From: Flavobacteriaceae bacterium
Lineage (GTDB): Bacteria; Bacteroidota; Bacteroidia; Flavobacteriales; Flavobacteriaceae
Direction: 5' to 3'
DNA length: 26,821 nt
NCBI GenBank assembly: GCA_013215095.1
Contig: JABSPM010000014.1
Location: 1 to 26,821 of the forward strand
Under the pieces are notes generated by a model. It worked only from the letters and a program-made list of their open reading frames with translations, did not search any database and was not told where the DNA came from. Both the position numbers and the translations under genes were made by a program. Position 1 is the first letter of the stretch; each line of letters opens with the position of its first letter. This document shows, in pieces, positions 8,029 through 26,660 of this stretch.

Positions 8029-8235
8029 ATGTTAGCTTTAGATAGTAGTTTTAAATTTGAGTTGTATTTGGGTCCAACGGATATGCGTAAAAGTTTTGAT
8101 AGTTTATACGTAATTGTTTCAAGTGACTTATCAGGTTTTCTTGCAGATGATACGGTTTATATTTTTGTAAATCGTCTTCATAATAAGGTGAAATTATTAC
8201 AATGGCGCGTAGGAGGTTTAGAAAGTTATTGTTAT
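8029..8235 (+). pseudogene. Remnant of IS66-family accessory protein TnpB (orf2). N-terminal ~65 aa only, 3'-truncated.
   Basis: MLALDSSFKFELYLGPTDMRKSFDSLYVIVSSDLSGFLADDTVYIFVNRLHNKVKLLQWRVGG aligns with IS66 TnpB (M.P.PSG.K.YLA.GVTDMRKGFDGL...LYVF.NRR.D.LKILWHDGQG). Homology is lost at ~8225, where the convergent T9SS gene ends. No tnpC follows. Confidence 0.55.
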
Positions 8236-9005
8236 TTATTCTTTATAAATTTAATTACAGTTCCGTTATCAAGTTTTAAAACGTATAAACCTTGTGTAAA
8301 GTTTCTAACATCAATTTGTTCATTATTGTTCATGCTCCCGATTTTTACTTGAGCACCTAAAACATTAACTATGTTGTAACCTAAACGTTTATTCAAACCT
8401 GAAATTTGAATAAAATCACTAGACGGATTTGGAAATAGTTTTACGTGATTACCAAAAGAAAAGGTATTGGTTGATAGTCCTTCTCCGGCAGAAAAAGCAA
8501 TTTCTGCAAATCCAGTATTATCTCCTCCATGATTACTGTTTATTACCATTCTAATAAATGCTGCATTAACGGCAGTAAAATTAAAAACTTCAGGAGGCGC
8601 AAGACCAACCATAACTTCAGCAAAATTAGTAGGTGCTCCTGGTATTTCAGTATAACTAACACCATCCATTGAGGATAGAAATGTGACACTATTTACACCC
8701 ATATTAGTGAAAGGGCCACCTAAGTTTTGATTCCAAAAGGCAATACCATCAATATCATAAATACCACCTAAATCAAAATCAATATATCCAGTTGTTTCAA
8801 CTGCTATGAAAGAATTAAGAGGTGTAGTACTGAGGTGATTTGCAGAAAGACTTGGAAAGGTTTCTAATCCTGTCCCGTTATAGACGAACTCAAGATGAGT
8901 ACTAAAATTCGCTGATAAGTTTGTCGTTGCTGACGTTGGATTAACAATTTGGCTGTATGCCAAATTCCAGCATAAAAAAGTCATTAAAATGTAAAGTCGT
9001 TTCAT
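8232..9005 (-). CDS. Secreted protein with an N-terminal signal peptide and a C-terminal T9SS type A (Por) sorting domain
   Basis: Signal peptide MKRLYILMTFLCWNLAYSQ. The C-terminus VKLFPNPSSDFIQISGL...GLYVLKLDNGTVIKFIKNK matches the TIGR04183-type CTD. The middle domain is unassigned. Confidence 0.8.
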   Translation of the reverse strand: MKRLYILMTFLCWNLAYSQIVNPTSATTNLSANFSTHLEFVYNGTGLETFPSLSANHLSTTPLNSFIAVETTGYIDFDLGGIYDIDGIAFWNQNLGGPFTNMGVNSVTFLSSMDGVSYTEIPGAPTNFAEVMVGLAPPEVFNFTAVNAAFIRMVINSNHGGDNTGFAEIAFSAGEGLSTNTFSFGNHVKLFPNPSSDFIQISGLNKRLGYNIVNVLGAQVKIGSMNNNEQIDVRNFTQGLYVLKLDNGTVIKFIKNK

Positions 9006-11703: not shown

Positions 11704-12097
11704 GGGGTCGACTGGTTTTGACAGCGAGATCTATGGAACTGTAAGCACGCCGCGTAATGATAATGACACGCGTTAAAGGCCTTATCAAATTTTAATCGGC
11801 GAGAATAACTACGCTTTAGCTGCTTAATAACTGAATTATAGTAAGTTCAAGCCCCGGCACACAAGGTGTGCAAGCTAAATGTCTCTTGAAAGCCTTGGTT
11901 TATGGCGTTCTAATTAGAGACATCGAAAAAGTAAACCTAGAGTTTCTAGAGCTTCTATAGAAACTCGAAAATTAAGAAGCTAAGTTCTAAGTAGGCCGTT
12001 TTTAGTCAGCTTATTATCGAAAATTAAATAAAAACTAAGCGTGTAGAAAGCACTTTTGTAGCTTGTTTGGACGAGGGTTCGATTCCCTCCGACTCCA
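11704..12097 (+). ncRNA. ssrA: Transfer-messenger RNA (tmRNA, SsrA), standard one-piece form
   Basis: The 5' end GGGGTCGACTGGTTTTGACAGCGAG pairs with the 3' end CGACTCCA (G3-U wobble). The tag reading frame at 11798-11830, ggc gag aat aac tac gct tta gct gct taa taa, gives GENNYALAA**. The T-arm is GGTTCGATTCC. CCA is not encoded. Confidence 0.9.
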
Positions 12098-12117
12098 CTG
12101 TTTATTTTCAAATAAAA

Positions 12118-13313: not shown

Positions 13314-13718
13314 TTATAGAATTAACATCAATTCGATTTTATTCAATATCATTTGCTATTACAGTAAAAAGAAAGTACCATTTATGTTTAGAACTAAAGC
13401 GAAATCACAGTTGTCATCTGTTTTTATTCTGAATTAAAAAACACGTGCTTTTATTACTCAACATGTAAAAGTAATGCTCTTAATGTCTTAGGCATCGTAT
13501 GCCACCTTAAGTTTGTTTTTATTATCAATATTTTAAATCTGAATTATGTATTAGAAAGTCATACAACATAATACAAAATACATGTATTGTGATTCTATGA
13601 ATTACACAAGTACATATATAAATAGCACTGCCACTTCTAATCTGATTAAAAGCTTATAAGTATGGAGATGCTTCATATTCATTGCATGAAATTATCATGC
13701 GCAACCTCATTTTATACT

Positions 13719-14435
13719 ATGATTACTCTAGATAACGTAAACAAGTCCTATGGCGATTTCAAAGCCCTAAAAAACCTCAATCTCACTGTAAAACCAGGTG
13801 AAATTTATTGTCTATTAGGTGCTAACGGTGCAGGAAAAACAACAACCATTAATCTTCTTTTAGGCTTTATAACACCCAATACAGGAACGATTTCTATTAA
13901 CAACATTAATGTCCAGAAATCAGCTCTAAAAAGCAAACAATATTTAGCATACATACCAGAAAATTTGATGCTTTACCCAAACCTCACTGCCGTAGAAAAT
14001 CTAAATTATTTCTCAGGTATTGGCGGAAAATCATTTGGCAAAAAAGCATTAGAAACATTCTTAGATGACGCTGGATTACAGCGAGAAGCTTTTCATAAAC
14101 GTTTGTCAAAATTTTCTAAAGGAATGCGTCAAAAAGTAGGAATTGCTATTGCTCTAGCGAAAGACACCAAAGTATTACTCTTAGACGAACCTACTTCAGG
14201 CTTAGATCCGAAGGCAAGTAACGAATTTGGACAACTTTTAAAACACCTAAAAAATAAGGGTGTTGCTATTCTTATGGCCACCCATGATATCTTTAGAGCT
14301 AAAGACGTGGCTACTCATATTGGAATTATGAAAGAAGGCGAACTCAAATATGAATTTGAGACCGATAAAATTTCATTAGCAGCCCTAGAAAGCACCTATT
14401 TAAAGATTATGGATTACAAAACTCTTGAAGTATGA
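13719..14435 (+). CDS. ABC transporter ATP-binding protein (ABC-2 subfamily)
   Basis: Walker A GANGAGKTT, signature LSKGMRQKV, Walker B LLLLDEPTSGLD, H-loop ATHD. The ORF track starts at 13662 but the conserved ABC N-terminus begins at MITLDNVNKSY (ATG 13719). Confidence 0.85.
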   Translation: MITLDNVNKSYGDFKALKNLNLTVKPGEIYCLLGANGAGKTTTINLLLGFITPNTGTISINNINVQKSALKSKQYLAYIPENLMLYPNLTAVENLNYFSGIGGKSFGKKALETFLDDAGLQREAFHKRLSKFSKGMRQKVGIAIALAKDTKVLLLDEPTSGLDPKASNEFGQLLKHLKNKGVAILMATHDIFRAKDVATHIGIMKEGELKYEFETDKISLAALESTYLKIMDYKTLEV

Positions 14436-15838
14436 TACTAAAAACATTAAGCAAAGAGTTTAAGGAATCATTTAGAAATGGCAAAGCCAAAATTGCCTTT
14501 TCTATTGTTGTTATACTGCTGTTTACCTCGGTTTGGCTAAGCATGCAAAAGTATAACAATGCCAATAAAGAATATCTTAAGGCTACTGAAAGTGAACGTC
14601 ATATATGGGATAATCAAGGTGAAAAAAATCCGCATTCGGCCGCGCATTACGGCACCTATGCGTTTAAACCTAAGCAACCACTATCTCTTATAGACAAAGG
14701 TGTTGACAAGTATGTAGGTACCACAATATTCTTAGAGGCACATTATCGCAATGAAGCTCAATTTAGTGCGGCAGCAGATCAAACTGGAACTTCAAGATTT
14801 GGTGAGTTAACTCCAGATTTTATATTGTTGTTTTTAATACCTTTATTAATTATACTTCTGGGTTATAACATTTTTACAAAAGAAAAAGAGCAGGGTACAT
14901 TGTTCTTACTAAAAAGCAGTGGTGCTTCTATTAATCAATTGACTTTGGGGAAGTGGTTATCCTTGTTTATACCTATATTTTTATGTACAACAATTGTATT
15001 TATCATCGCAGGGATATTATTATCTAATCTTAACGATTATGGCACATTTAGTTGGACTTCACTTATTTCAATGTGGAGTATTTACATCGGTTTTTATATT
15101 GTTTTTATCAATATTGTCATGCTTATCTCTTATGTTTCTAAACGTTCAGGACTCTCACTTGTAATCGCTTTGTCGGTATGGATTTTCACTTGTCTTGTTA
15201 CTCCAAAAATAGCGAGTACACTTGCAGAAAACAAATATCCCTATCCAACACGACAAGAATTTCAGGCAATGGTAACAAAAGATAAGAAGCAAGGTTTGGA
15301 TGGTCATAACACTTGGAATGAAGAAGCACAGCTACTAAAAGAAAAAGTATTAAAAGAATACAAGGTGGATAGTCTGCATCAACTCCCTTTTAACTTTGAC
15401 GGTTACCGCATGCAAAAAGGAGAAGAATATCAAGCTGCTATATATTCCAAACATTATAATAACCTTAAAGCCCAATATGAGAATCAAAACAAAACGTACA
15501 AAACTTTAGCTGCGATTTCACCTTTTTTACCAACACGATTTCTAAGCATGTCTATTGCGCAAACCGATTATGCTACACATTGGCATTTTTCGGATGCCGC
15601 AGAACAGTATAGAATTCAAACTCAAAAATTTTTGAATGACAATTTTGCACAAAATTCTGTATTTGGTGATTGGAAGTACAAAGCAGACAGCTCAACTTGG
15701 TCAGCTTTACCGCAGTTTAACTACACCCCACAAAGCCTATCAACTATAATAGATACCAATAAAAGCTATCTTATCATTTTAGGGCTTTGGGTACTGCTCT
15801 CTTTTAGTACGTTATACTTAACTATTAAACTTAAATAA
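14432..15838 (+). CDS. Large ABC-2-type permease subunit, paralog 1 (468 aa). I recall this architecture as DUF3526-like.
   Basis: Start overlaps the ATPase stop (ATGA). Layout is an N-terminal TM helix, an extracytoplasmic segment, a 5-helix hydrophobic core, a ~200-aa soluble insert and a final TM helix. Confidence 0.65.
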   Translation: MILKTLSKEFKESFRNGKAKIAFSIVVILLFTSVWLSMQKYNNANKEYLKATESERHIWDNQGEKNPHSAAHYGTYAFKPKQPLSLIDKGVDKYVGTTIFLEAHYRNEAQFSAAADQTGTSRFGELTPDFILLFLIPLLIILLGYNIFTKEKEQGTLFLLKSSGASINQLTLGKWLSLFIPIFLCTTIVFIIAGILLSNLNDYGTFSWTSLISMWSIYIGFYIVFINIVMLISYVSKRSGLSLVIALSVWIFTCLVTPKIASTLAENKYPYPTRQEFQAMVTKDKKQGLDGHNTWNEEAQLLKEKVLKEYKVDSLHQLPFNFDGYRMQKGEEYQAAIYSKHYNNLKAQYENQNKTYKTLAAISPFLPTRFLSMSIAQTDYATHWHFSDAAEQYRIQTQKFLNDNFAQNSVFGDWKYKADSSTWSALPQFNYTPQSLSTIIDTNKSYLIILGLWVLLSFSTLYLTIKLK

Positions 15839-15840
15839 TC

Positions 15841-17271
15841 ATGTTTAAATACAACTTCATATACGAATTCAAACGCCTTATTAGAAGCCAATGGATTCAA
15901 GTGCTTAGCATTTTACTTTTTGCCGTATTTAGCTTTGCAGTATTTAATGGACAACAAAAAACACAAAAACGTCTTGAAGAAATTTCTTCAGTTAAAGAGA
16001 AATTAAAAACCTCTGAAGCACAAATGCTCAGCGTATTAGACTCAATAGAACAAGGGTTCCAAGTTTCTGTATCTCGTTGGAGATTGCCAAGTAACCCAAT
16101 GACTATAGGTAACAAACATCCACGTCTTGTAGAGATGCCACCGCATCAGTGGACCTTTATTTCTACAGGGCAAAGCGACATGTATAGCCATTATGTAAAA
16201 CCTACAGTACAAGCTAATGATTTTGAGTTAAGTTTTACCGAAATGACCAGTCCTACGCAACTCTTATTTGGAAGTTTTGATTTGACCTTTGTTATTGTAT
16301 ATCTCTTGCCATTAATCATTATTGCATTTGGCTTTAATATTTTATCCTACGAAAGAGAGAGTGGTGCTTTAAAACTATTAGCATCCCAACCTGTCTCTTT
16401 AACATTTTGGGTCTTTCAAAAATTGGTCTTACGTTTCTTATGGTTATCTGTGATTGTAATACTCACATTGTACCTTATTTTCAGTGGCAATGGGATTAAT
16501 ATTTTTAAGGAGATGGCAACATTTTTTAGTCTAATAGGCGTAATTTGTGCGTATATGCTATTTTGGTTTGCCTTAGCATTTTTGGTGAACATTTTTGGAA
16601 TGAATTCCGCAAAAAATGCATTAGTATTGATTGGCTTATGGATTTTATTTGTACTACTCGTTCCTACAGTAATTAATCAAGTTGGTAATACGCTATATCC
16701 TATGCCATCTAGAACAATTATGGTAAATAAAATGCGCTCGATTAAAGCGAATGCAACAAAAAAACAAGATGAAATATTAGATAATTATTTGAGAGACCAT
16801 CCCGAGTTTGCGATTAATGACAGTACACAAAATCGAACATTTTGGCATCGATATATGGCGTCTCAAGCGCTTATAGATAAAGCACTAAAACCTGTTGTAT
16901 CTAATTACAACAAGCAACTCCGAAAACAACAAAATTGGTTGGATAAACTCAAGTGGTTATCTCCGTCAATGCGCGTAAAAGCGGCATTAAATAACACCGC
17001 AGGTACTTCAACTACAGATTATGAGAATTTTAGAAATCAAGCCCTCGCGTTTTCGGAGCAATGGCGTAAGCATTTCATTCCATTTTTATATAATAACACT
17101 CCCTTTTCATCTAAGGATTATGAGCACATACCAACCTATCAATACCGTCAAAAAGCACATTCCAACATGGCTACAATTGGTATTCTATTTGCCATAGCAC
17201 TACTTATGTTTGCAATAGGATTATTGGCTTCTAAAAATCTCAAATACAAAATGAATTTAACCATATCCTAA
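15841..17271 (+). CDS. Large ABC-2-type permease subunit, paralog 2 (476 aa)
   Basis: Begins 3 nt after paralog 1. Same topology pattern and similar length, with conserved GYN/GFN..ERE and YPxP motifs shared with paralog 1. Confidence 0.65.
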   Translation: MFKYNFIYEFKRLIRSQWIQVLSILLFAVFSFAVFNGQQKTQKRLEEISSVKEKLKTSEAQMLSVLDSIEQGFQVSVSRWRLPSNPMTIGNKHPRLVEMPPHQWTFISTGQSDMYSHYVKPTVQANDFELSFTEMTSPTQLLFGSFDLTFVIVYLLPLIIIAFGFNILSYERESGALKLLASQPVSLTFWVFQKLVLRFLWLSVIVILTLYLIFSGNGINIFKEMATFFSLIGVICAYMLFWFALAFLVNIFGMNSAKNALVLIGLWILFVLLVPTVINQVGNTLYPMPSRTIMVNKMRSIKANATKKQDEILDNYLRDHPEFAINDSTQNRTFWHRYMASQALIDKALKPVVSNYNKQLRKQQNWLDKLKWLSPSMRVKAALNNTAGTSTTDYENFRNQALAFSEQWRKHFIPFLYNNTPFSSKDYEHIPTYQYRQKAHSNMATIGILFAIALLMFAIGLLASKNLKYKMNLTIS

Positions 17272-17450: not shown

Positions 17451-18419
17451 TTAAATTTTTGAAAGTACAGTCTCCATAATCTTACGCGTGTAAGTATTCA
17501 GTTTATTATGGGTTGGCATCCATCCCAATAAAAACCGCGTAAAATCAACAGATGCTATGAGATACATTTCCCGCCATTCTTTCTCCAAAGCATTAATATC
17601 TATTTTTACATCTCGTCTAGACACAGCGGTTCTAAGGCACTCAAAATAATAATCCAAGACATCATTTTCATAATATGCACATGCGTCACCAGACAAACAA
17701 CTACCAAGAAAATACGCCACATCTTTCATTCCGCATCCGCCACCAACATATTGAAAATCTACAGCAGCTACGCGTCTTCCATCTTCCGAAAAACAAAAAT
17801 TAGCCAATTTAGCATCGCCATGCACAATAGTTTGAAACTGACATTGATTTAAGCATTTATCAATCTCATGTGCTTTTGACTTAAGCAAGTCATCTTCCAT
17901 TTTTTCAAATTCTTCTGGTCGTGTCTCTAAATGCCAATACGTTCCTATCTCCCAAAGGCCTTCTGGCTTAGTATTAAGAAATCTAGCATGAAAATTTGCT
18001 AACCATTGCAAACAAACACCAACCTCTTCTATAGCTATTTGCTGTTTTACCAAAGGATACTCTACTTGCAAATCTTCCAATATAATCCACCTCTTATGTC
18101 CTTGCTCTAACGCGCCAATACATTTAGGAACTTTACATGTCATCCCACAAGATTTAGACCAATATTTATACCAATAGGTCTCTACATCATAAGAACGTAA
18201 TTTTCTTTGATGCCCAATACTCGTATGCCACCCTCTGGGGTGGGTGTTAGAATGTTCTAATTGAATACATTTTACAACTACAGAAGTCATGTCACCATTA
18301 TCAATTTGATATCGTGCAACATAACCATAACCACTCCACAATGACTGTATCTCCTCTATTAAAGTACATTGCTTAGCATTGGTAAGCCCTTTCAAATAAT
18401 TTTCAAACTCAAAATCCAT
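17451..18419 (-). CDS. Protein-kinase-like phosphotransferase (APH/choline-kinase fold; EcKL/DUF1679-like)
   Basis: 322 aa. Catalytic loop HGDAKLANFCF and a DFQYVGGG (DFG-like) motif. Divergent from the YqiJ/flotillin genes. Confidence 0.6.
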   Translation of the reverse strand: MDFEFENYLKGLTNAKQCTLIEEIQSLWSGYGYVARYQIDNGDMTSVVVKCIQLEHSNTHPRGWHTSIGHQRKLRSYDVETYWYKYWSKSCGMTCKVPKCIGALEQGHKRWIILEDLQVEYPLVKQQIAIEEVGVCLQWLANFHARFLNTKPEGLWEIGTYWHLETRPEEFEKMEDDLLKSKAHEIDKCLNQCQFQTIVHGDAKLANFCFSEDGRRVAAVDFQYVGGGCGMKDVAYFLGSCLSGDACAYYENDVLDYYFECLRTAVSRRDVKIDINALEKEWREMYLIASVDFTRFLLGWMPTHNKLNTYTRKIMETVLSKI

Positions 18420-18619
18420 GACTACAAAGCTATCAAATTAAAACCCTTTATGACATCTTGTAACATTTTAATTAAAATAGAGACCTATCATATAAACTTG
18501 TAGTTCAAATAAGTCTTTTAAGACATCTAAATAATCTGTAACTTACAAGCGGAAATCACAACTTAATATATGTTGTAATTTCTATTTTAACAATTTTCAT
18601 ACTAATTCATTTTTTAACA

Positions 18620-19363
18620 TTGGATACTATTTTTGACATAGCGTTTTCTCCAGTTAATTTAACCTTAAGTATACTGGTTATTTTATTAATTTTATATTGG
18701 ATTTTTAACATGATTTCGGGTATTGATTTTGACCTGGACATCGATGTGGATATAGACGTGGATAGCGATATAAATGTTGATACTAGCTTAGAATCCGCTT
18801 CCTTTAACGATGTATTAAATGCCGAAATTAATAAAGAAGATTTCCGCACACCAAACACAAAAAAATCAATCTGGTGGCAACACCTGCTCATGTATTTCAA
18901 CTTTGTAGGATTGCCATTTATGTTCACCTTTACCTGTTGGGTATTTTTCTGGTGGTTGAGTACCATAATTTCTACGACAATAACTGCATCATATAACACC
19001 AACTACGGTTATACCTTATTACTAGCAGGACTTTTACCATCATTGGTTTTAACCAAAATTTTCACAACACCATTTAAAGGCTTTTTTAAAAACTTAAATC
19101 CAGACGGCGACAAACCAGTTAATTTTATAGGTAGAAAAGGTACCATGCTTTCAAAAATATCTAAAGACAAAATGGGTTCTGCTGAAATTCTAGTAGATAA
19201 TAATCCCATCTCTGTTTATGTTAAACCGAAAAATGGCATCACTTTGACCTACAAACAAGAAATTGTTATTACAAAACAATCCTCGGATAAAAATTTCTAT
19301 TGGGTTATTTCGGCCGAAGACCCAAACGAGCGAATCGTTAATATCGAAGATATCAAATTTTAA
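18620..19363 (+). CDS. YqiJ/NfeD-like membrane protein (DUF1449-type), upstream partner of flotillin
   Basis: TTG start. An N-terminal TM helix is followed by the acidic tandem repeat DFDLDIDVDIDVDSDINVD. Then come two to three further TM helices and a C-terminal soluble beta-rich domain. This is the same architecture and gene order as E. coli yqiJ-yqiK and B. subtilis yuaF-floT. Confidence 0.65.
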   Translation: MDTIFDIAFSPVNLTLSILVILLILYWIFNMISGIDFDLDIDVDIDVDSDINVDTSLESASFNDVLNAEINKEDFRTPNTKKSIWWQHLLMYFNFVGLPFMFTFTCWVFFWWLSTIISTTITASYNTNYGYTLLLAGLLPSLVLTKIFTTPFKGFFKNLNPDGDKPVNFIGRKGTMLSKISKDKMGSAEILVDNNPISVYVKPKNGITLTYKQEIVITKQSSDKNFYWVISAEDPNERIVNIEDIKF

Positions 19364-19409
19364 ATACAACACATTTTTAAATTACAAACCACAAAACCAA
19401 ACAGTTAAT

Positions 19410-21476
19410 ATGGAAAACATCACACAATTTGTTGGAATAGGTATTGGACTTATTCTGTTTTTAATCGTTATTTACTTTGCAATCATTGCGCTATTCTACA
19501 AAAAAGTACCACAAGGAGAGGCTTTAGTAAGAACAGGATTTAAAGGCACCAAAGTTGCTACAGATAAAGGATTATACGTTGTACCTGTATTTCACAAAGT
19601 TGAAATCATGGACATTTCAGTAAAAAAAATACAAATTGAACGTATTGGAGAAAATGGACTGTTGTGTAAAGACAATATGCGTGCAGACATCAAAGTAGCT
19701 TTCTTTGTGCGCGTAAACAATGAAGTAGAATTCATCAAAAAAGTAGCACAAACAGTAGGTTGTGAAAGAGCCTCAGATATTTCAACTTTAGAAGAGCTTT
19801 TTGAAGCAAAATTCTCCGAAGCCTTAAAAACCGTTGGAAAAAAATTCCAGTTTGTAGAATTATATGAGGCGCGTCGCGAATTTCGTGATGAAATTGTAGA
19901 TATTATAGGAACCGACCTTAATGGCTATACCTTAGAAGACTGTGCAATTGATTATTTAGAGCAAACCTCAGTACAGTTCCTTAAACCAGACAACATTTTA
20001 GATGCCGAAGGAATTAAAAAGATTACAGAGCTTACTGCTGAGCAAAACATGAAAGCTAACCTTATAAAACGTGATGAAGAAAAAGTAATACGCAAACAAG
20101 ACGTTGAAGCTTTTGAAGCCATCTTGGAATTGGATAAACAATTAGCTGAAAAACAAGAGCAACAAAAACGTGAAATAGCAAATATTAAGGCACGCGAGGA
20201 AGCCGAAATCCTAAAAGTGTCTCAAGAAGAACGTTTAAAATCTGAATCTGCGCGTATTTCTACGGAAGAAAAAGTAAAAGTTGCAGAAGAAAACATGGAA
20301 CGCCAAATCATTGTAGCAGCAAAAAACAAACAGCGTACAGATGCTGTTGAGACAGAGCGCGTAGAAAAAGACCGCATGCTAGAAGCTACAGAAAGAGAAC
20401 GTATTGTAACCTTAGCACAAATTGAAAAGGAAAAAGTTGTTGAGGTAGAAAAGAAGAACATTCAAGATGTGATTCGCGACCGTGTAATGCTAGAAAAAGG
20501 CGTAGTTGAAGAGCAAGAAAACATGAAAGATATCGAGGCATTTAAAACTGCAGAACGCGAAAAGCAAGTAAAAATTACAATTGCAGAAGCCAATGCCCAA
20601 GAAGCACTGATTACAACTATTAAAGCAGCAGAAGCTGAAAAAGAAGCTGCCAAACAAAAAGCCGAGGAAATCAATATTGAAGCTGAAGCCAAAAAACAAG
20701 CAAGTGAAAAAGAAGCTGAAGCTAGAAAAACATTAGCAGAAGCGAAAGCTAAAGAAGAAGCAACCATAGGAATGTCTGAAGCCCAAGTGATGCACGCAAA
20801 GGCAGATGCCAATGAACGCCAAGGATTGGTAGAAGCTACAATTATTGAAGAAAAAGCTAAAGCAGAAGCTGCTGGTATCTTAGCCAAGGCACAAGCAATT
20901 AAAGAAGAGGGTGTTGCGCAAGCTGAAGTTATCAAAGAGCAAGCCTTAGCAGAAGCATCGGGTATTGAAGAAAAAGCAAATGCTATGAAAAAATTAGATG
21001 GTGTTGGAAAAGAACATGAAGAATTTAAGCTTCGCTTAAACAAAGAACTAGAAGTAGACTTGGCAGAAATCAATATCCAAAAAGATATTGCCGATGCACA
21101 AGCACAAGTGATTGGTGAAGCCTTAAAAGCTGCAAATATTGATATTGTTGGTGGAGAAACCATGTTCTTCAACCAAATCATTGGTCAAATTACTAAATCT
21201 AAAGGTATAGACCGATTAATTAATCATTCTGACACTATTACTGATGTCAAAGACGCTATCTTAGGTAGTGACGACGTGAAAGGAAACTTACTCGACAAAA
21301 TCAAAGATTTTGCTCAAAAATATGGCATATCTTCTGAGGACATCAAAAATATAACTGTTGCCAACTTATTGGTTCACTTAAAATCTAAAACATCAGACTC
21401 TAGTGAGCTCAACTTATTTGAAAACCTTTCTAACTTAGCCAAAGGACTAGGTTTATCGAATAAAACAATAGGATAA
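19410..21476 (+). CDS. Flotillin-like SPFH/band-7 protein (YqiK/FloT family) with an extended E/A/K-rich coiled coil
   Basis: 688 aa from ATG 19410; the ORF track's 19263 start overlaps the upstream gene. N-terminal TM helix, an SPFH domain (VRTGFKGTKV...VPVFHKVEIMDISVKKIQIERIG...RADIKVAFFVRV), then ~350 aa of EA/KA-rich heptads. Confidence 0.85.
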   Translation: MENITQFVGIGIGLILFLIVIYFAIIALFYKKVPQGEALVRTGFKGTKVATDKGLYVVPVFHKVEIMDISVKKIQIERIGENGLLCKDNMRADIKVAFFVRVNNEVEFIKKVAQTVGCERASDISTLEELFEAKFSEALKTVGKKFQFVELYEARREFRDEIVDIIGTDLNGYTLEDCAIDYLEQTSVQFLKPDNILDAEGIKKITELTAEQNMKANLIKRDEEKVIRKQDVEAFEAILELDKQLAEKQEQQKREIANIKAREEAEILKVSQEERLKSESARISTEEKVKVAEENMERQIIVAAKNKQRTDAVETERVEKDRMLEATERERIVTLAQIEKEKVVEVEKKNIQDVIRDRVMLEKGVVEEQENMKDIEAFKTAEREKQVKITIAEANAQEALITTIKAAEAEKEAAKQKAEEINIEAEAKKQASEKEAEARKTLAEAKAKEEATIGMSEAQVMHAKADANERQGLVEATIIEEKAKAEAAGILAKAQAIKEEGVAQAEVIKEQALAEASGIEEKANAMKKLDGVGKEHEEFKLRLNKELEVDLAEINIQKDIADAQAQVIGEALKAANIDIVGGETMFFNQIIGQITKSKGIDRLINHSDTITDVKDAILGSDDVKGNLLDKIKDFAQKYGISSEDIKNITVANLLVHLKSKTSDSSELNLFENLSNLAKGLGLSNKTIG

Positions 21477-21480
21477 CATT

Positions 21481-21513
21481 GCTGCGCTTATATCTCCTGT
21501 AAGCGCGGCTTTT
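21481..21513 (+). terminator. Terminator-like hairpin after the flotillin gene
   Basis: gctgcgctta-tatctcctg-taagcgcggc tttt. 9/10 bp stem, short T-run. Confidence 0.4.
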
Positions 21514-21528
21514 ACAACTTAAGTTGTA
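21513..21528. promoter_or_regulatory. 16-bp perfect palindrome TACAACTTAAGTTGTA upstream of the giant ATPase gene, a candidate operator
   Basis: Read directly from the sequence. About 0.4 such 16-bp perfect palindromes are expected by chance in 27 kb. Confidence 0.3.
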
Positions 21529-21662
21529 GCGCAAAAAAAGTCTTATCATATAAACTTGGTATATGAATTTTAAAGTAGATATAATAAGCTTAACTGCATG
21601 ACATCTTAATAGCAAATATAACCACTAGTTTTTGTTTTATACGTTTTAATCACACCTTAAGA

Positions 21663-24600
21663 ATGGAACAATCCAACACCTCAAATACGACACTACTGGA
21701 TGGTGGCACTTATGAAATTATTCTGAGCCGCTTAAACACACATAAAAGTGAACTTCTTTCCCGCTTAAACCAACTAAATGAAGCTCGAAAAACTGTTTTT
21801 GGTAATATAGAAATAAAACTCATTTCTAATAACCGCATCAATACAGAAAACAACTGTATTGCGAGAGATATTGTGAGTATTGGAGACCTTTGCTTGTTTG
21901 GTTATAATGTCCATTTTGGACTGCGAACAGAAATTACACTTGAAGATGTTTTTAGTATTTACACCTTTAATGACAATCATTTTACCACTGAACCGCTTGA
22001 GCTTTTAAATGACCCCGTTTTTATAAATGATTTTACCAATCTCTATAAATACTATAGAAATACGGTCTTTACAAAGTTTGCAGTTGTTGGAAATTACCTT
22101 CATATGGTATTTCAGCTGAGTGAAAGTGTTACCGATCTTAAAACCTTTAAATGGCTTATCAATGATGGCCAACTCAATTATATTGATAATCGCAGCGAAC
22201 ATGAATTCACATTTCCTAAGCAGCATGGTTTTCACTGGGAAACTCCAAGCAGAGATCATCATGTTTATGGAGAACACCCCCATATTTCAATATTAGATAA
22301 GGTTTTTGTAGAAACCATTGGCGGCGACTTAACAATTAAAATTGAAGATAACACCAATGATGGCAAAGGCATTTATAATGAGCCTGTAGAACATGCAGAT
22401 CAAACCTTAGATGACGGACAGTACCGCTATGCAGATTTGGGTAACCTTATCGTTTTAGACATCAAACCTTTCCAAGAAGCGTCTCGTTTTTTTGTTTATA
22501 ATCATAAAATTCAAGATGTAAAAAAAATTGACAGTATAGCAGATGCCTGTCAATTACTACCTGATGAACAAGGCATCGTGTTTGCTAATGGGTACTATTT
22601 ACAATCCGGAGATTTTAAGTACTTTGACAATAACATTTCTAATGTCAAATATAAAAAGAAAGTAAGTTCTCCCAACGGAGAAGACTTCTTATATGTCTAT
22701 TACGAAAGCATTAAGGGGCTCTATATCTTAATGGCTTATAACGTTATTGAGCAACAGGTAAAAACACCTATTATTTGTAACGGCTACACTATTCTTAGAG
22801 ATGGAAAACTCTGTTATTTTAAAACAGAAGACGAGCAAACCAAGCATCATGTTATTCAGATTTGGCAAACCCCTTTTACAAAAGGTGAAGCAATACCATC
22901 TAAACATAGCGACACTTTATTATACAAAATTGGAAATAAAGATATCGTAAAAGCGATGGCAGAATGTCAAGCGCTCATCACCTTACTCAACAAAGAAGAT
23001 AGCTACAATGGGTTGTACGATGATATTTCTAAAACATCTAACGATCTACTAAACAGCTATTATTGGATTACAGAACCTGATACTTTTTCACTCAACGTAC
23101 CACTTACAGAAATTCATTCTGCCGCCAATTCGGCAATTGATGAATTTGAAAAAGTCGTACAACTTCGAAAAAATGCCGACCATAATACTAGAGAGATGCA
23201 AGCGAAAGCTAATCATCTTTTTGGTAAAATAAAAAGCAGTTCATTTAAGTCTATTGAAGACTTTGTCAATTGTTTATCAAAATTGCGCACCTTAAGAGGA
23301 GAAGTTATCGCACTCAATGACATGCGCTATATAGACACTGAAGCTATTACCGCCTATGAAGACCAAATTGCAAATCATCATGATACAATCTCAAAACGTT
23401 GTGTACAGTTCCTATTGGATGATAAAGCACTTATACCTTATCATAAGAGGGTTGCTGCAAAAGAAAACGCATTAAAAGACATTAAAAAAGTTGTTGAAAC
23501 CAAGCGCTTAGAAAATGAGGTAAATCAAATTGCCAATGATCTAGAAATGCTCATTACTATTGTGTCAAATTTAGAAATTGAAGACGCGTCTCATGCTACA
23601 AAAATCATTGACAATATTGCTTTGATATTTGCAACGATTAATCAATTAAAAGCTGGAATAAAAAACCAGCTAAAATCTTTAGGTGCCAGAGAAGCTTCAG
23701 CTGAATTTACCGCACAACTCAAATTGGTAGATCAAAGTATCATCAACTATTTAGATATTGCTAATACTCCAGAAAAAACAGACGAATTTCTCAACAAAGT
23801 GGCTATTCAGCTTGAAGATTTGGAAGGCCGATTTGCAGATTTTGAAGACTTCATCACTATCATTATTGAAAAACGTGAAGAAATTTACAATGCTTTTGAA
23901 GCTAGAAAAAATGGACTCATTGAAGCTAGAAGCAAAAAAGCAATCAGCTTAGAATCCGCTGCCAATCGCATTCTTAAAGGAGTCGCTAAAAAAGCTATGC
24001 AATTCAAAACCACAGTAGAAATCAATGGGTATTTTGCCTCTGATTTGATGATAAATAAGCTACGAGATATTATTATTAACCTAAATGATTTAGAGGATGG
24101 CGGAAAGGCAGAAGCCATAGAAACCAAACTTAAAGTAGCTAAAGAAGATGCCATACGAAAACTTAAAGACACCCAAGATCTTTATGAAAATGGAGAAAGC
24201 GTTATTCGTCTTGGAAAACATAAATTTGGTGTTAATAAGCAAGTGTTAGATTTAACCATTGTTTACAAAAACAATACCCTAAAATACCATTTAACAGGAA
24301 CCGATTTTTATCAAAGCATCGAAGATAGTAGGCTGCTATCCTCTCAAAAATATTGGGATCAAGAATTGGTGTCAGAAAACCAGACCATTTACAGGTCGGC
24401 TTACCTTGCGTATAAAATCTTTTGTAAGTCTTCTAAGGATTTAAACACTCTAAACACCGCAGATTTATTAGAACTAATAAAACAAGAAAGTAGTAAAAAC
24501 TATTCTGAGGGCTATATTAAAGGGGTTCATGATGAAGACGCTGCACAGATTTTAAAGGTACTCGTAAATAAACATCGTGATTTAGATCGCCTTAAATATA

Positions 24601-26561
24601 TGCCATTGGTTCGTGCTTTTGGACAATTCTTTTGGCGTGGTTTGAATACTGAACAGAGACAAAAATGGAACCAGAGGTTAAAATCTGCAGGAGAAGTACT
24701 TGCTACATTTCCAGAAAGTGTTGCATATAAAACAACCCTTACTGCTTTAAGCGAAGCGCTAAAGAATTCTACATTTTTTAGTATCCTATCCTCAAATTTT
24801 CATCAAAATGGGCAAACGCTTAACGATAGAACCGCTTTATATTTATTTGATGAACTACAAAATGACAACCATTTTTGCACTAGTAAAACTGCCCAAGAAT
24901 TGTATGAGCAGTTTATTAAAACTTTAGAACAAAAAGAAGCCCTACTGACTTTTAACAAGGCTCTAAAAGTGACACTCAATGCGCAATCTATTACAACATC
25001 TGCATTAGAACTCATCACACAATGGGCGAGTTCATTTATTATATTACACGCCAATAATCGTAGAGATTACATTTATGAACTAGTAGCTTTAATTTTATTT
25101 AAAAATGAGATTAACTCTGATGTCATTCAAATTAGTCCAGATGCTACAATTGCGAACTTAAAAGGCACGCATAATAGTATTATAGATGGTAATTTTGAGT
25201 TTAATTATCATAAGTTCACACGACAACTTCAGGTATTTCAAGCGCAAGAAGTTCCTGCATTTAATGCATTTCGGGCAGCAAAACACCAACTCACAGAAGG
25301 CCTTAAAACACAATTAAAGCTAGAGGAGTTTACACCAAAAGTTTTGTCTTCATTTGTAAGAAACAAGCTTATTGACAAGGTGTATTTGCCATTGTTTGGA
25401 GACAATTTAGCAAAACAACTTGGAACTGTTGGAGCGCATAAACGTACCGACCGTATGGGTATGCTTTTATTAGTGTCTCCACCAGGTTATGGAAAAACGA
25501 CCTTAATGGAATATCTGGCTAACCGTCTGGGCTTGATATTCATGAAAATAAATGGTCCTGCAATTGGTCACGAGGTCACTTCTGTAGACCCATCTACAGC
25601 AACGAATGCTGCTGCTAGAGAAGAGCTCAAAAAGTTAAATTTAGCATTTGAAATGGGAAACAATGTGATGCTATATTTGGACGATATTCAACATTGTAAC
25701 TCAGAATTTTTACAAAAATTCATCTCGCTTGCCGATGGTACTCGAAAAATTGAGGGTGTGTATAATGGCAAACCCAAAACGTATGATTTTAGAAGTAAAA
25801 AATTCTGTGTAATAATGGCGGGTAACCCCTATACCGAACATGGCGATAAATTTCAAATACCTGACATGTTAGCCAATCGCGCAGATATTTATAACCTGGG
25901 AGATATCATTGGAGATACATCAGATTTATTCAAATTAAGCCTCATTGAAAATGCATTAACCTCTAATCCTATTTTACAACAATTAAGCAGTAAACATTTT
26001 GAGGATATCTATGCGCTAATTGACGCTGTAGAAACGGGCAACAGAGATGCACTTATGCTTAAAGGCAATCATACCAAGCAAGAAGTTGAAGACTACATGG
26101 CGGTTCTAGATAAAGTAATTCGCATACGCAATACGGTTTTAAAAGTCAACGAAACCTATATAAAATCCGCAGCAATGGATGACAATTATCGTACCGAACC
26201 CTCCTTTAAATTACAAGGTTCATATCGCGATATGAATAAACTTGTTGCTAAGGTTGTTCCAATTATGAATCCTAAAGAATTGCAGGCGCTTTTATTATCT
26301 CATTATGAAAATGAATCACAAACCTTAACTACTGCTGCAGAAGCCAATTTATTAAAATATAAAGCGCTTACACAAACTATTGACGCCACAGAACTAGAAC
26401 GTTGGCAAGCAATAAAAACAACTTTTATAAAAAACAATAAGCTTAAAGGATTTGGTAATCAAAATGGCATGACACAAGTTTTAGCGCAAATGATGACATT
26501 TAGTGCGCATTTAGAAGGGATTCAAGATGTGCTGAAAAAAGGATTGGATAAAAATTCTTAA
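21663..26561 (+). CDS. Giant (1632 aa) cytoplasmic protein with a C-terminal MoxR/AAA_5-like AAA+ ATPase domain. Function unknown.
   Basis: Uninterrupted ORF with no signal peptide or TM helices. Walker A LLLVSPPGYGKTTLMEYLA, Walker B NVMLYLDDIQH, sensor-1 VIMAGNPYTE, and an Arg region IPDMLANRADIY. These resemble the MoxR ATQNP...LP.A.LDRF pattern. They lie at about aa 1270-1460. The N-terminal ~1250 aa have no motifs I recognise and include coiled-coil stretches. Confidence 0.8.
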   Translation: MEQSNTSNTTLLDGGTYEIILSRLNTHKSELLSRLNQLNEARKTVFGNIEIKLISNNRINTENNCIARDIVSIGDLCLFGYNVHFGLRTEITLEDVFSIYTFNDNHFTTEPLELLNDPVFINDFTNLYKYYRNTVFTKFAVVGNYLHMVFQLSESVTDLKTFKWLINDGQLNYIDNRSEHEFTFPKQHGFHWETPSRDHHVYGEHPHISILDKVFVETIGGDLTIKIEDNTNDGKGIYNEPVEHADQTLDDGQYRYADLGNLIVLDIKPFQEASRFFVYNHKIQDVKKIDSIADACQLLPDEQGIVFANGYYLQSGDFKYFDNNISNVKYKKKVSSPNGEDFLYVYYESIKGLYILMAYNVIEQQVKTPIICNGYTILRDGKLCYFKTEDEQTKHHVIQIWQTPFTKGEAIPSKHSDTLLYKIGNKDIVKAMAECQALITLLNKEDSYNGLYDDISKTSNDLLNSYYWITEPDTFSLNVPLTEIHSAANSAIDEFEKVVQLRKNADHNTREMQAKANHLFGKIKSSSFKSIEDFVNCLSKLRTLRGEVIALNDMRYIDTEAITAYEDQIANHHDTISKRCVQFLLDDKALIPYHKRVAAKENALKDIKKVVETKRLENEVNQIANDLEMLITIVSNLEIEDASHATKIIDNIALIFATINQLKAGIKNQLKSLGAREASAEFTAQLKLVDQSIINYLDIANTPEKTDEFLNKVAIQLEDLEGRFADFEDFITIIIEKREEIYNAFEARKNGLIEARSKKAISLESAANRILKGVAKKAMQFKTTVEINGYFASDLMINKLRDIIINLNDLEDGGKAEAIETKLKVAKEDAIRKLKDTQDLYENGESVIRLGKHKFGVNKQVLDLTIVYKNNTLKYHLTGTDFYQSIEDSRLLSSQKYWDQELVSENQTIYRSAYLAYKIFCKSSKDLNTLNTADLLELIKQESSKNYSEGYIKGVHDEDAAQILKVLVNKHRDLDRLKYMPLVRAFGQFFWRGLNTEQRQKWNQRLKSAGEVLATFPESVAYKTTLTALSEALKNSTFFSILSSNFHQNGQTLNDRTALYLFDELQNDNHFCTSKTAQELYEQFIKTLEQKEALLTFNKALKVTLNAQSITTSALELITQWASSFIILHANNRRDYIYELVALILFKNEINSDVIQISPDATIANLKGTHNSIIDGNFEFNYHKFTRQLQVFQAQEVPAFNAFRAAKHQLTEGLKTQLKLEEFTPKVLSSFVRNKLIDKVYLPLFGDNLAKQLGTVGAHKRTDRMGMLLLVSPPGYGKTTLMEYLANRLGLIFMKINGPAIGHEVTSVDPSTATNAAAREELKKLNLAFEMGNNVMLYLDDIQHCNSEFLQKFISLADGTRKIEGVYNGKPKTYDFRSKKFCVIMAGNPYTEHGDKFQIPDMLANRADIYNLGDIIGDTSDLFKLSLIENALTSNPILQQLSSKHFEDIYALIDAVETGNRDALMLKGNHTKQEVEDYMAVLDKVIRIRNTVLKVNETYIKSAAMDDNYRTEPSFKLQGSYRDMNKLVAKVVPIMNPKELQALLLSHYENESQTLTTAAEANLLKYKALTQTIDATELERWQAIKTTFIKNNKLKGFGNQNGMTQVLAQMMTFSAHLEGIQDVLKKGLDKNS

Positions 26562-26617: not shown

Positions 26618-26633
26618 TGATTTCCCCAACAGA

Positions 26634-26660
26634 CAAGGTTGGGGGTTTTTACCTAAAACT
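26634..26660 (+). terminator. Rho-independent terminator after the giant gene
   Basis: ccccaac-agacaag-gttgggg followed by gttttt. Confidence 0.7.

Follow-up and report, generated by a model that had tools for sequence, protein, structure and literature searches.

The window analysed here, an entire contig of 26,821 bp from a metagenome-assembled genome (MAG) of the Flavobacteriaceae, carries three consecutive genes on one strand that encode a YqiJ-type membrane protein (gene 1), a flotillin (gene 2), and a giant protein with a C-terminal ATPase module (gene 3). The three open reading frames (ORFs) and the gaps of 46 bp between genes 1 and 2 and of 186 bp between the flotillin gene and the giant gene had been described in an earlier note on this DNA, and our ORF reading of the window confirms these coordinates (Table 1). 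The note had further proposed that the three genes belong to one system, and the linkage check across genomes that has now been carried out bears this out, as 73 of 76 loci, drawn from at least eight phyla, keep the order and the strand of the trio. It had also presented the system as undescribed, and this no longer holds: judged by its genes, the locus corresponds to the short form, without PspA, of an operon that was described computationally in 2024 together with this abbreviated form (Ravi, Anantharaman, Aravind, Gennaro et al., 2024, mSystems 9:e00847-23; PMC11237479), and for the giant protein a Pfam family (DUF3686) and an NCBI product name exist.

Table 1. The three genes, the domains of the giant protein, and the sequence elements in and around the trio.
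Feature	Position	Strand	Remarks
Gene 1, predicted YqiJ (DUF1449)-family inner-membrane protein	18620..19363	+	247 aa, TTG start
Gene 2, predicted YqiK/FloT-type flotillin	19410..21476	+	688 aa, ATG start
Gene 3, DUF3686-family giant protein	21663..26561	+	1632 aa, soluble
DUF3686 (PF12458) region, aa 30–467	21750..23063	+	Pfam E 1.7e-182, model positions 1–448 of 448
DUF7902 (PF25472), aa 588–671, within helical bundles at about aa 419–700	23424..23675	+	Pfam E 1.2e-22
Predicted MoxR-like AAA+ module, about aa 1230–1460	25350..26042	+	AAA_5 and AAA matches at aa 1268–1391
Hairpin, 12-bp stem followed by UUUU, directly 3′ of the flotillin stop codon	21481..21509	+	fold calculation
Perfect 16-bp palindrome TACAACTTAAGTTGTA	21513..21528	.	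second hairpin or operator-like site possible
15-mer TATCATATAAACTTG, copy 1	18486..18500	+	about 120 bp 5′ of gene 1
15-mer TATCATATAAACTTG, exact copy 2	21544..21558	+	about 105 bp 5′ of the giant gene
Terminator-like hairpin with T-run	26623..26645	+	62 bp 3′ of the giant-gene stop codon
EcKL/APH-type kinase	17451..18419	divergent from trio	Pfam 1.4e-15

Gene 1 alone gave no match in Pfam, NCBIfam, or PADLOC scans. A profile of gene 1 and 29 syntenic orthologs aligned with YqiJ of Escherichia coli over 184 columns (hhalign 96.6%, E 6.8e-10), 11 of the 30 orthologs matched the YqiJ_N family (PF21001) directly, and the Hymenobacter ortholog carries a DUF1449 annotation. Hydropathy analysis revealed strong segments at residues 3–39 and 95–113, to which the alignment adds another hydrophobic block, and the C-terminal beta-rich domain aligns with the C-terminus of YqiJ; the NfeD family (PF01957) was touched by only a single one of the 30 orthologs (E 0.0049). 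The gene lies directly 5′ of the SPFH gene, in an order that is identical in 73 loci. By homology, gene 1 is an inner-membrane protein of the YqiJ family. An acidic loop with D-x-D-x-D repeats (DFDLDIDVDIDVDSDINVD, residues 33–54, positions 18716–18781) is located just past the first transmembrane segment and is conserved among the YqiJ-like proteins of the module; in its sequence, it resembles a divalent-cation-binding stretch.

Full-length gene 2 was likewise without a match in the Pfam, NCBIfam, and PADLOC scans, as the compositional bias of its coiled coil suppresses the Band_7 match. When residues 1–249 were analyzed alone, Band_7/SPFH (PF01145) was found on residues 31–176 (1.2e-15), and BLASTP detected E. 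coli YqiK with 31% identity over 453 residues that include the coiled coil (1e-47). The protein has a single, N-terminal hydrophobic segment according to its hydropathy, followed by a coiled coil that spans about 400 residues with an abundance of Glu, Ala, and Lys (E, K, A, and Q make up 54% of residues 200–600) and by a C-terminal tail. With these characteristics, gene 2 can be assigned to the flotillins of the YqiK/FloT type, and the previous recognition of genes 1 and 2 as a YqiJ/flotillin pair is supported by the hhalign comparison with YqiJ, the BLASTP match with YqiK, and the Band_7 domain. The note was also right in stating that no NfeD protease domain, acetyltransferase, or dynamin is encoded in the window. 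The start of gene 2 was set according to the called orthologous genes, which correspond to 688 residues; in the mechanical ORF list, the frame begins farther 5′, with a TTG at 19263. The compositional bias of the flotillin also explains why it is automatically annotated as “hypothetical protein” in several public records. The coiled-coil region stands out by an AT skew of 0.43 (bin 20001–21000) and by an antisense shadow ORF of 239 residues (20462–21181).

The giant protein had been predicted to be soluble, and hydropathy analysis indeed found no transmembrane segment in it. It had also been stated that an AAA+ domain is its sole recognisable module, which has to be revised, since DUF3686 and DUF7902 are matched with high significance in its N-terminal half (Table 1). 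More than 5500 homologs of the protein were found, all 240 among the matches listed combine DUF3686, DUF7902, and a C-terminal AAA domain, and the full scan of the representatives of 50%-identity clusters gave 1331 clusters with E ≤ 1e-3. The identity is 66–83% between genera of the Flavobacteriaceae and 44–50% between phyla over 1600 residues. The abundance of homologs and the recurrence of the trio across phyla imply that the three ORFs represent genuine genes. An AlphaFold2 model of residues 1–700, with a mean predicted local distance difference test score (pLDDT) of 86.4, consists of a helix (residues 15–46), about 27 beta-strands (residues 52–402), and helical bundles (residues 419–699). 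The top Foldseek matches of this model in the PDB were all beta-propellers, namely Elp1, WD40 proteins, CyRPA, prolyl oligopeptidase, YncE, and Vps18, with E-values from 1e-6 to 1e-4 and template modelling scores (TM-scores) of at most 0.34. According to the model, the strands form a divergent beta-propeller, and the start of the helical region closes DUF3686.

The AAA+ core fold was modelled with a pLDDT of about 90, and its nearest folds are the MoxR remodellers CbbQ and NorQ; the model thus shows a MoxR-like fold of the ATPase module. The module had previously been placed in the helix-2-insert clade; a beta-structured insert of helix 2 is not seen in the model. At the pre-sensor-1 position, between helix 3 and strand 4, a beta-hairpin was modelled (residues 1362–1375). 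When the sequence of the AAA+ region or the family profile was compared with the PDB, matches were confined to the P-loop, and a clade was not assignable from sequence in this way. In 39 diverse homologs, the Walker A motif SPPGYGKTT (K1278), the sensor-1 residue N1388 (AGNPYTE), and R1406 are invariant, and R1406 in PDMLANRAD is a candidate arginine finger. The Walker B motif LYLDDIQH contains an Asp-Asp pair (D1340, D1341; positions 25680–25685) instead of Asp-Glu, and this pair is invariant in all 39–55 aligned homologs. Such an invariant replacement of the catalytic glutamate is unusual in an AAA+ motor that is presumed to be active.

The linkage of the three genes was analyzed with one genome per species, using the best 80 loci of a scan with the family profile, whose flanks were searched with iterated hidden Markov models; the 70 of these loci that have at least 3.5 kb 5′ of the giant gene were counted. 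In 67 of the 70, yqiJ and then the flotillin gene lie directly 5′ of the giant gene on one strand, and the scan loci span Bacteroidota, Planctomycetota, Verrucomicrobiota, Desulfobacterota, Kiritimatiellota, and Clostridia. The trio was present in six out of six further loci (a Streptomyces plasmid, a Deinococcus plasmid, Vibrio, an Alteromonadaceae genome, a TARA metagenome scaffold, and Seonamhaeicola), and the arrangement is also found on plasmids of Hymenobacter and Pseudomonas (pQBR103). The linkage of yqiJ, flotillin, and giant gene is thus close to obligate, and the three genes constitute one system. Pairwise identities of the three proteins correlate across the loci (r 0.74–0.83, reached in none of 500 permutations), which fits an inheritance as a unit and may also be due to a shared species phylogeny. 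A conserved downstream partner was not detected by all-against-all clustering of the flanking ORFs of the 80 loci, and the recurrent opposite-strand “families” in this clustering turned out to be shadow ORFs inside the flotillin and giant genes.

The sole other recurrent neighbours, found in 35 of the 67 loci, are genes for a CesT/Tir-like chaperone, for PspA/IM30, and for a divergently encoded HTH_3 + Peptidase_S24 repressor. This long form of the operon occurs in Aquimarina, Tenacibaculum, Hymenobacter, and at least 30 other loci, and it is always preceded by the divergent repressor gene (758–1516 on the minus strand in locus L002, 3589–4374 on the minus strand in locus L004, and likewise in 34 more loci). 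The repressor is CI/LexA-like, which suggests that the long form may be induced via repressor self-cleavage. The window has the short form, which lacks the three additional genes, and so do the two closest relatives, Pontimicrobium with 81% identity and Seonamhaeicola with 78%. Both forms have their counterparts in the 2024 analysis, which tied the operon to PspA-based membrane dynamics: CesT/Tir-PspA operons were reported to encode in addition a protein with a transmembrane segment, a band-7 domain, a coiled coil, and a flotillin region, as well as a protein with three transmembrane segments that is typified by YqiJ/YuaF, and abbreviated operons with the flotillin, the YqiJ-type protein, and sometimes an AAA+ protein were described as more widely distributed, without CesT/Tir-PspA, with the suggestion that PspA encoded elsewhere may serve (PMC11237479). 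Compared with the operon as presented there, our locus shows nothing that is different in kind and represents the abbreviated form; in the passages of the paper that were read, we saw no mention of the HTH-S24 regulator (PMC11237479). Our analysis extends that description by the count of the linkage, the structural assignment of the ATPase to the MoxR group, the invariant Asp-Asp pair in Walker B, the finding that an HTH-S24 repressor accompanies the long form, and a defence test with negative outcome. In the searchable literature library, we found no experimental paper on the DUF3686/flotillin/YqiJ family and no paper that mentions DUF3686 or PF12458, and the combinations of flotillin with MoxR and of “DNA repair ATPase” with flotillin yielded nothing relevant.

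A special arrangement was observed on pQBR103 from Pseudomonas fluorescens SBW25 (locus L005, 84437–97641 of the record), where the trio is joined to another type of PspA operon. This second module has the order YjfI-PspA-rhomboid-DUF2491-DUF350-DUF1190-glutathionylspermidine synthase, and both modules lie in one array. As pQBR103 is a well-studied plasmid, it may offer an experimental entry point, and culturable carriers of the system are P. fluorescens SBW25 with pQBR103, Proteus mirabilis, Vibrio campbellii, Aquimarina, and Tenacibaculum.

The spacer between the flotillin gene and the giant gene contains two elements that had been noted before, a perfect 16-bp palindrome, which is present, and a “weak terminator,” which exists as a hairpin and is in fact strong: the joint fold of hairpin and palindrome reaches −23.5 kcal/mol, with z = −5.2 in comparison with shuffles. 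The hairpin looks like an intrinsic terminator or attenuator. Pontimicrobium has a hairpin at the equivalent position after the flotillin gene (−16 kcal/mol, z = −5.9), and by eye we recognised an inverted repeat 3′ of the flotillin stop codon in Seonamhaeicola and, upstream of gene 1 in the window (about 18559–18577), an inverted repeat ACAAC-N9-GTTGT that is related to the palindrome. In other loci, the length of the spacer varies from about 0 to 2.4 kb depending on the taxon (6334–8000 in L002, 6942–8000 in L003, 7177–8000 in L089, and also L078), and in other genera it often harbours unrelated small genes over 0.5–2.4 kb, such as a GIY-YIG gene in Tenacibaculum, four small ORFs in Aquimarina, and a 210-residue ORF in Seonamhaeicola. 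The spacer thus behaves as an insertion hot spot within an otherwise fixed gene order. The hairpin after the flotillin gene, which is also present in Pontimicrobium, and the insertions into the spacer suggest that the giant ATPase gene may be expressed separately from the scaffold genes or at a lower level. Downstream of the giant gene, a further hairpin marks the end of the three-gene unit; its fold is no better than that of shuffled sequences (z = −1.1). The 15-mer TATCATATAAACTTG has just the two matches in the window that are listed in Table 1. Its TAAACTTGTA part and the upstream TGTAACATTT are common to the window and Pontimicrobium on the side of gene 1, and the copy 5′ of the giant gene is not kept in Pontimicrobium. 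The 15-mer might serve as a promoter element that resembles the −7 box of Bacteroidota (TAnnTTTG-like), a weak lead that is only partly conserved in relatives.

Our best explanation, which we regard as probable, is that the trio supplies the cytoplasmic side of the membrane with an SPFH/NfeD scaffold and a dedicated ATP-driven remodeller, and that it acts in membrane stress. Of the two functions that had been suggested in the earlier note, membrane remodelling or repair is the better supported one, and the anti-phage function found no support by PADLOC. By homology, the YqiJ-type anchor with its NfeD-like C-terminal domain would co-assemble with the flotillin to a ring or cage of the SPFH/NfeD type under the membrane, and we infer the formation of such a cage by analogy to QmcA-YbbJ, HflK/C, and flotillin (reviewed in PMC13086221). 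The propeller and the helical arm could then dock the giant ATPase on the flotillin/YqiJ scaffold, or, in the case of the long form, on PspA polymers, and a predicted beta-propeller that is combined with helical repeats would suit a docking arm. ATP turnover may assemble, disassemble, or reshape the scaffold, or it may extract or mature a client protein that is held there. The process would serve the response to membrane stress or the repair of the membrane, with a logic like that of Vps4 on ESCRT-III or of FtsH inside the HflK/C cage. In the lineage of the window, the trio would work alone or with PspA that is encoded elsewhere, and the strong hairpin after the flotillin gene would keep the expression of the scaffold genes above that of the ATPase gene. 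A narrower version of this explanation, which we put forward only tentatively and consider somewhat doubtful, is that the DUF3686 giant is a dedicated ATP-driven assembly or disassembly factor of cytoplasm-facing flotillin/NfeD cages. We know of no protein to which such a role has been assigned so far.

Several observations weigh against the scaffold–remodeller explanation. PspA, CesT, and the regulator are absent from the window, the whole 26.8-kb MAG contig, and in three of the 76 loci (L041, L065, and L067) the giant gene has no partners nearby, even at relaxed thresholds. The module is patchily distributed and resides on several large plasmids, which would fit an accessory or conflict role as well. 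The putative contact of the giant protein with flotillin or with YqiJ has only the synteny of their genes as its basis. The Asp-Asp Walker B motif may mean slow, switch-like hydrolysis instead of a processive motor. As to the MoxR relationship, residues 1298–1315 between strand 2 and helix 2, where the helix-2 beta-insert would be expected, appear in the model as a conserved loop without beta structure. MoxR ATPases usually operate with a VWA-domain partner, and a VWA domain is absent from the ORFs of the window and from the giant protein, with no recurrent extra neighbour in the 80 loci.

If the giant ATPase were instead a MoxR-type maturation chaperone that serves one particular transporter complex or membrane enzyme, much as CbbQ serves Rubisco and NorQ serves nitric oxide reductase, flotillin and YqiJ would be only its assembly platform and not its substrate. 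CbbQ and NorQ, the nearest structural relatives, are indeed dedicated activases or maturases, flotillins have been proposed as assembly platforms (PMC13086221), and the propeller could bind a client protein. However, the flanks of the 80 loci contain no recurrent gene that could encode such a client, and the VWA adaptor is missing. A client-specific maturase overlaps with the scaffold–remodeller explanation, from which it differs only in the substrate, and it is a live variant of it, which we nevertheless consider unlikely. Clearly less likely still is a membrane-anchored anti-phage or abortive-infection system, in which flotillin and YqiJ would sense the infection and the giant ATPase would trigger or execute the response. 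The patchy occurrence of the family across phyla and its presence on large plasmids would agree with defence, as would the control of the long form by a CI/LexA-like cleavable repressor of a type that is common in mobile elements, the methyltransferase and MutH-like gene downstream of the trio in Pontimicrobium, and the involvement of many large STAND and AAA+ repeat-domain proteins in defence. Against this stands that matches of the trio in PADLOC-DB v2 were limited to the P-loop (IetA 1.2e-4, mad8 1.5e-3), and that the Pfam scan of the trio was negative for effector domains, whether nuclease, protease, TIR, pore-forming, or of another kind. An enrichment in defence islands did not emerge either, as only about 8 of the 137 nearest-neighbour proteins from the 70 loci match any PADLOC model and no defence family recurs among them, a count that stands without a matched control set. 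Moreover, the conservation, with 66–83% identity between Flavobacteriaceae genera and 44–50% between phyla, is high for a defence gene, and among extra partners only the membrane-stress genes for PspA and CesT are conserved.

The databases point in another direction, as Pfam describes DUF3686 as “ATPase involved in DNA repair” and NCBI uses the product name “DNA repair ATPase,” which would make the adjacency to flotillin functionally meaningless. A weak P-loop similarity to RuvB and the LexA-like regulator of the long form could be taken as further hints. However, the RuvB and Cdc48 matches cover the Walker A region only, with about 35–50 residues and E-values of about 1e-3 to 1e-5, no DNA-binding, nuclease, or helicase domain was found in the giant protein, and the literature search yielded no paper on DUF3686 or PF12458 that would substantiate the name. 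As two membrane-protein genes are linked to the giant gene in 73 of 76 loci, a chance adjacency is ruled out. We regard DNA repair as a highly improbable function, and judged from the domains of the protein, the name “DNA repair ATPase” is unsupported; its correction concerns a misleading label that has spread over thousands of database entries.

The comparison with known systems illustrates what is shared and what is specific. Genes 1 and 2 correspond to E. coli yqiJK and Bacillus subtilis yuaF-floT(-yuaI), as they are YqiJ/YqiK homologs in the same order and closely spaced, whereas a giant ATPase is absent from those operons; in the window, the flotillin comprises 688 instead of 553 residues, and gene 1 has diverged too far to match Pfam directly. 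The MoxR ATPases CbbQ, NorQ, and RavA, with their VWA partners CbbO, NorD, and ViaA, are proteins of about 260–500 residues with an N-terminal AAA+ domain. In contrast, the giant protein carries its AAA+ domain at the C-terminus, behind propeller and helical repeats, has 1632 residues, no VWA partner, a DD Walker B motif, and no evident helix-2 beta-insert. SPFH-NfeD pairs such as QmcA-YbbJ form cytoplasm-facing cages, HflK/C houses the AAA+ protease FtsH, and FloA-NfeD of Staphylococcus aureus stabilises unfolded proteins (reviewed in PMC13086221). The functional coupling of an SPFH assembly with an AAA+ machine at the inner membrane would be shared with HflK/C-FtsH (PMC13086221), but HflK/C is oriented to the periplasm, and FtsH is an AAA protease of the classic clade that is embedded in the membrane, whereas for the trio we predict a cytoplasm-facing scaffold with a soluble, MoxR-like ATPase that lacks a protease domain. 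Similar to ESCRT-III/Vps4, the long form encodes a polymer of the ESCRT-III superfamily, PspA, beside an AAA+ ATPase, and this analogy has been drawn for PspA-AAA+ pairs in the 2024 paper (PMC11237479). However, Vps4 is a small AAA protein of the classic clade with an MIT domain, from which the giant ATPase differs in clade and architecture, and the window encodes no PspA.

Bacterial flotillins and their NfeD/YqiJ partners are widespread, and the module pairs them nearly always with a large and highly conserved MoxR-like motor and in about half of the cases with PspA. If the motor acts on the scaffold, the module would be a tractable model for energy-dependent microdomain remodelling and membrane repair. 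Should the giant protein turn out to be the proposed assembly or disassembly factor, it would correspond, in bacteria, to Vps4 acting on ESCRT-III or to FtsH in HflK/C, the invariant Asp-Asp Walker B motif would set a slow, switch-like cycle, and the protein would provide a genetic and biochemical handle on the function of bacterial flotillins. The value lies in the family and not in the locus of the window, and the family as such has already been pointed out in print (PMC11237479).

The divergent EcKL-type kinase that had been noticed at the border of the trio is present (Table 1), but it adjoins the trio in only one of 86 loci, which is the window itself, and it was therefore rejected as a member of the system. 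Farther 5′ of the kinase, an ABC transporter ATPase gene is followed by two paralogous ABC-2/DUF3526 permease genes (13662–17271, plus strand), which are not conserved beside the trio in other genomes. The gene ssrA for the transfer-messenger RNA (tmRNA) lies 6.5 kb 5′ of the trio (11704–12100, plus strand; Rfam 149 bits) and encodes the tag peptide GENNYALAA. Genes for tmRNA are frequent integration sites of islands, and a genomic island at this gene was considered and dismissed, since no second, attachment-like copy of the tmRNA 3′ end was found in the window. Mobile-element debris had also been suspected at the borders of the locus; no repeat family occurs at these borders, and the presumed IS630 copy could not be confirmed, as there is only an ORF stub of 29 residues without family match at the end of the contig. 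The sole verifiable mobile-element remnant in the window is an ORF of 107 residues (8029–8352, plus strand) that corresponds to IS66 Orf2 (TnpB_IS66, E 3.5e-12), and this ORF overlaps the 3′ end of an opposite-strand gene for an F5/8 type C domain protein that is sorted by the type IX secretion system (T9SS).

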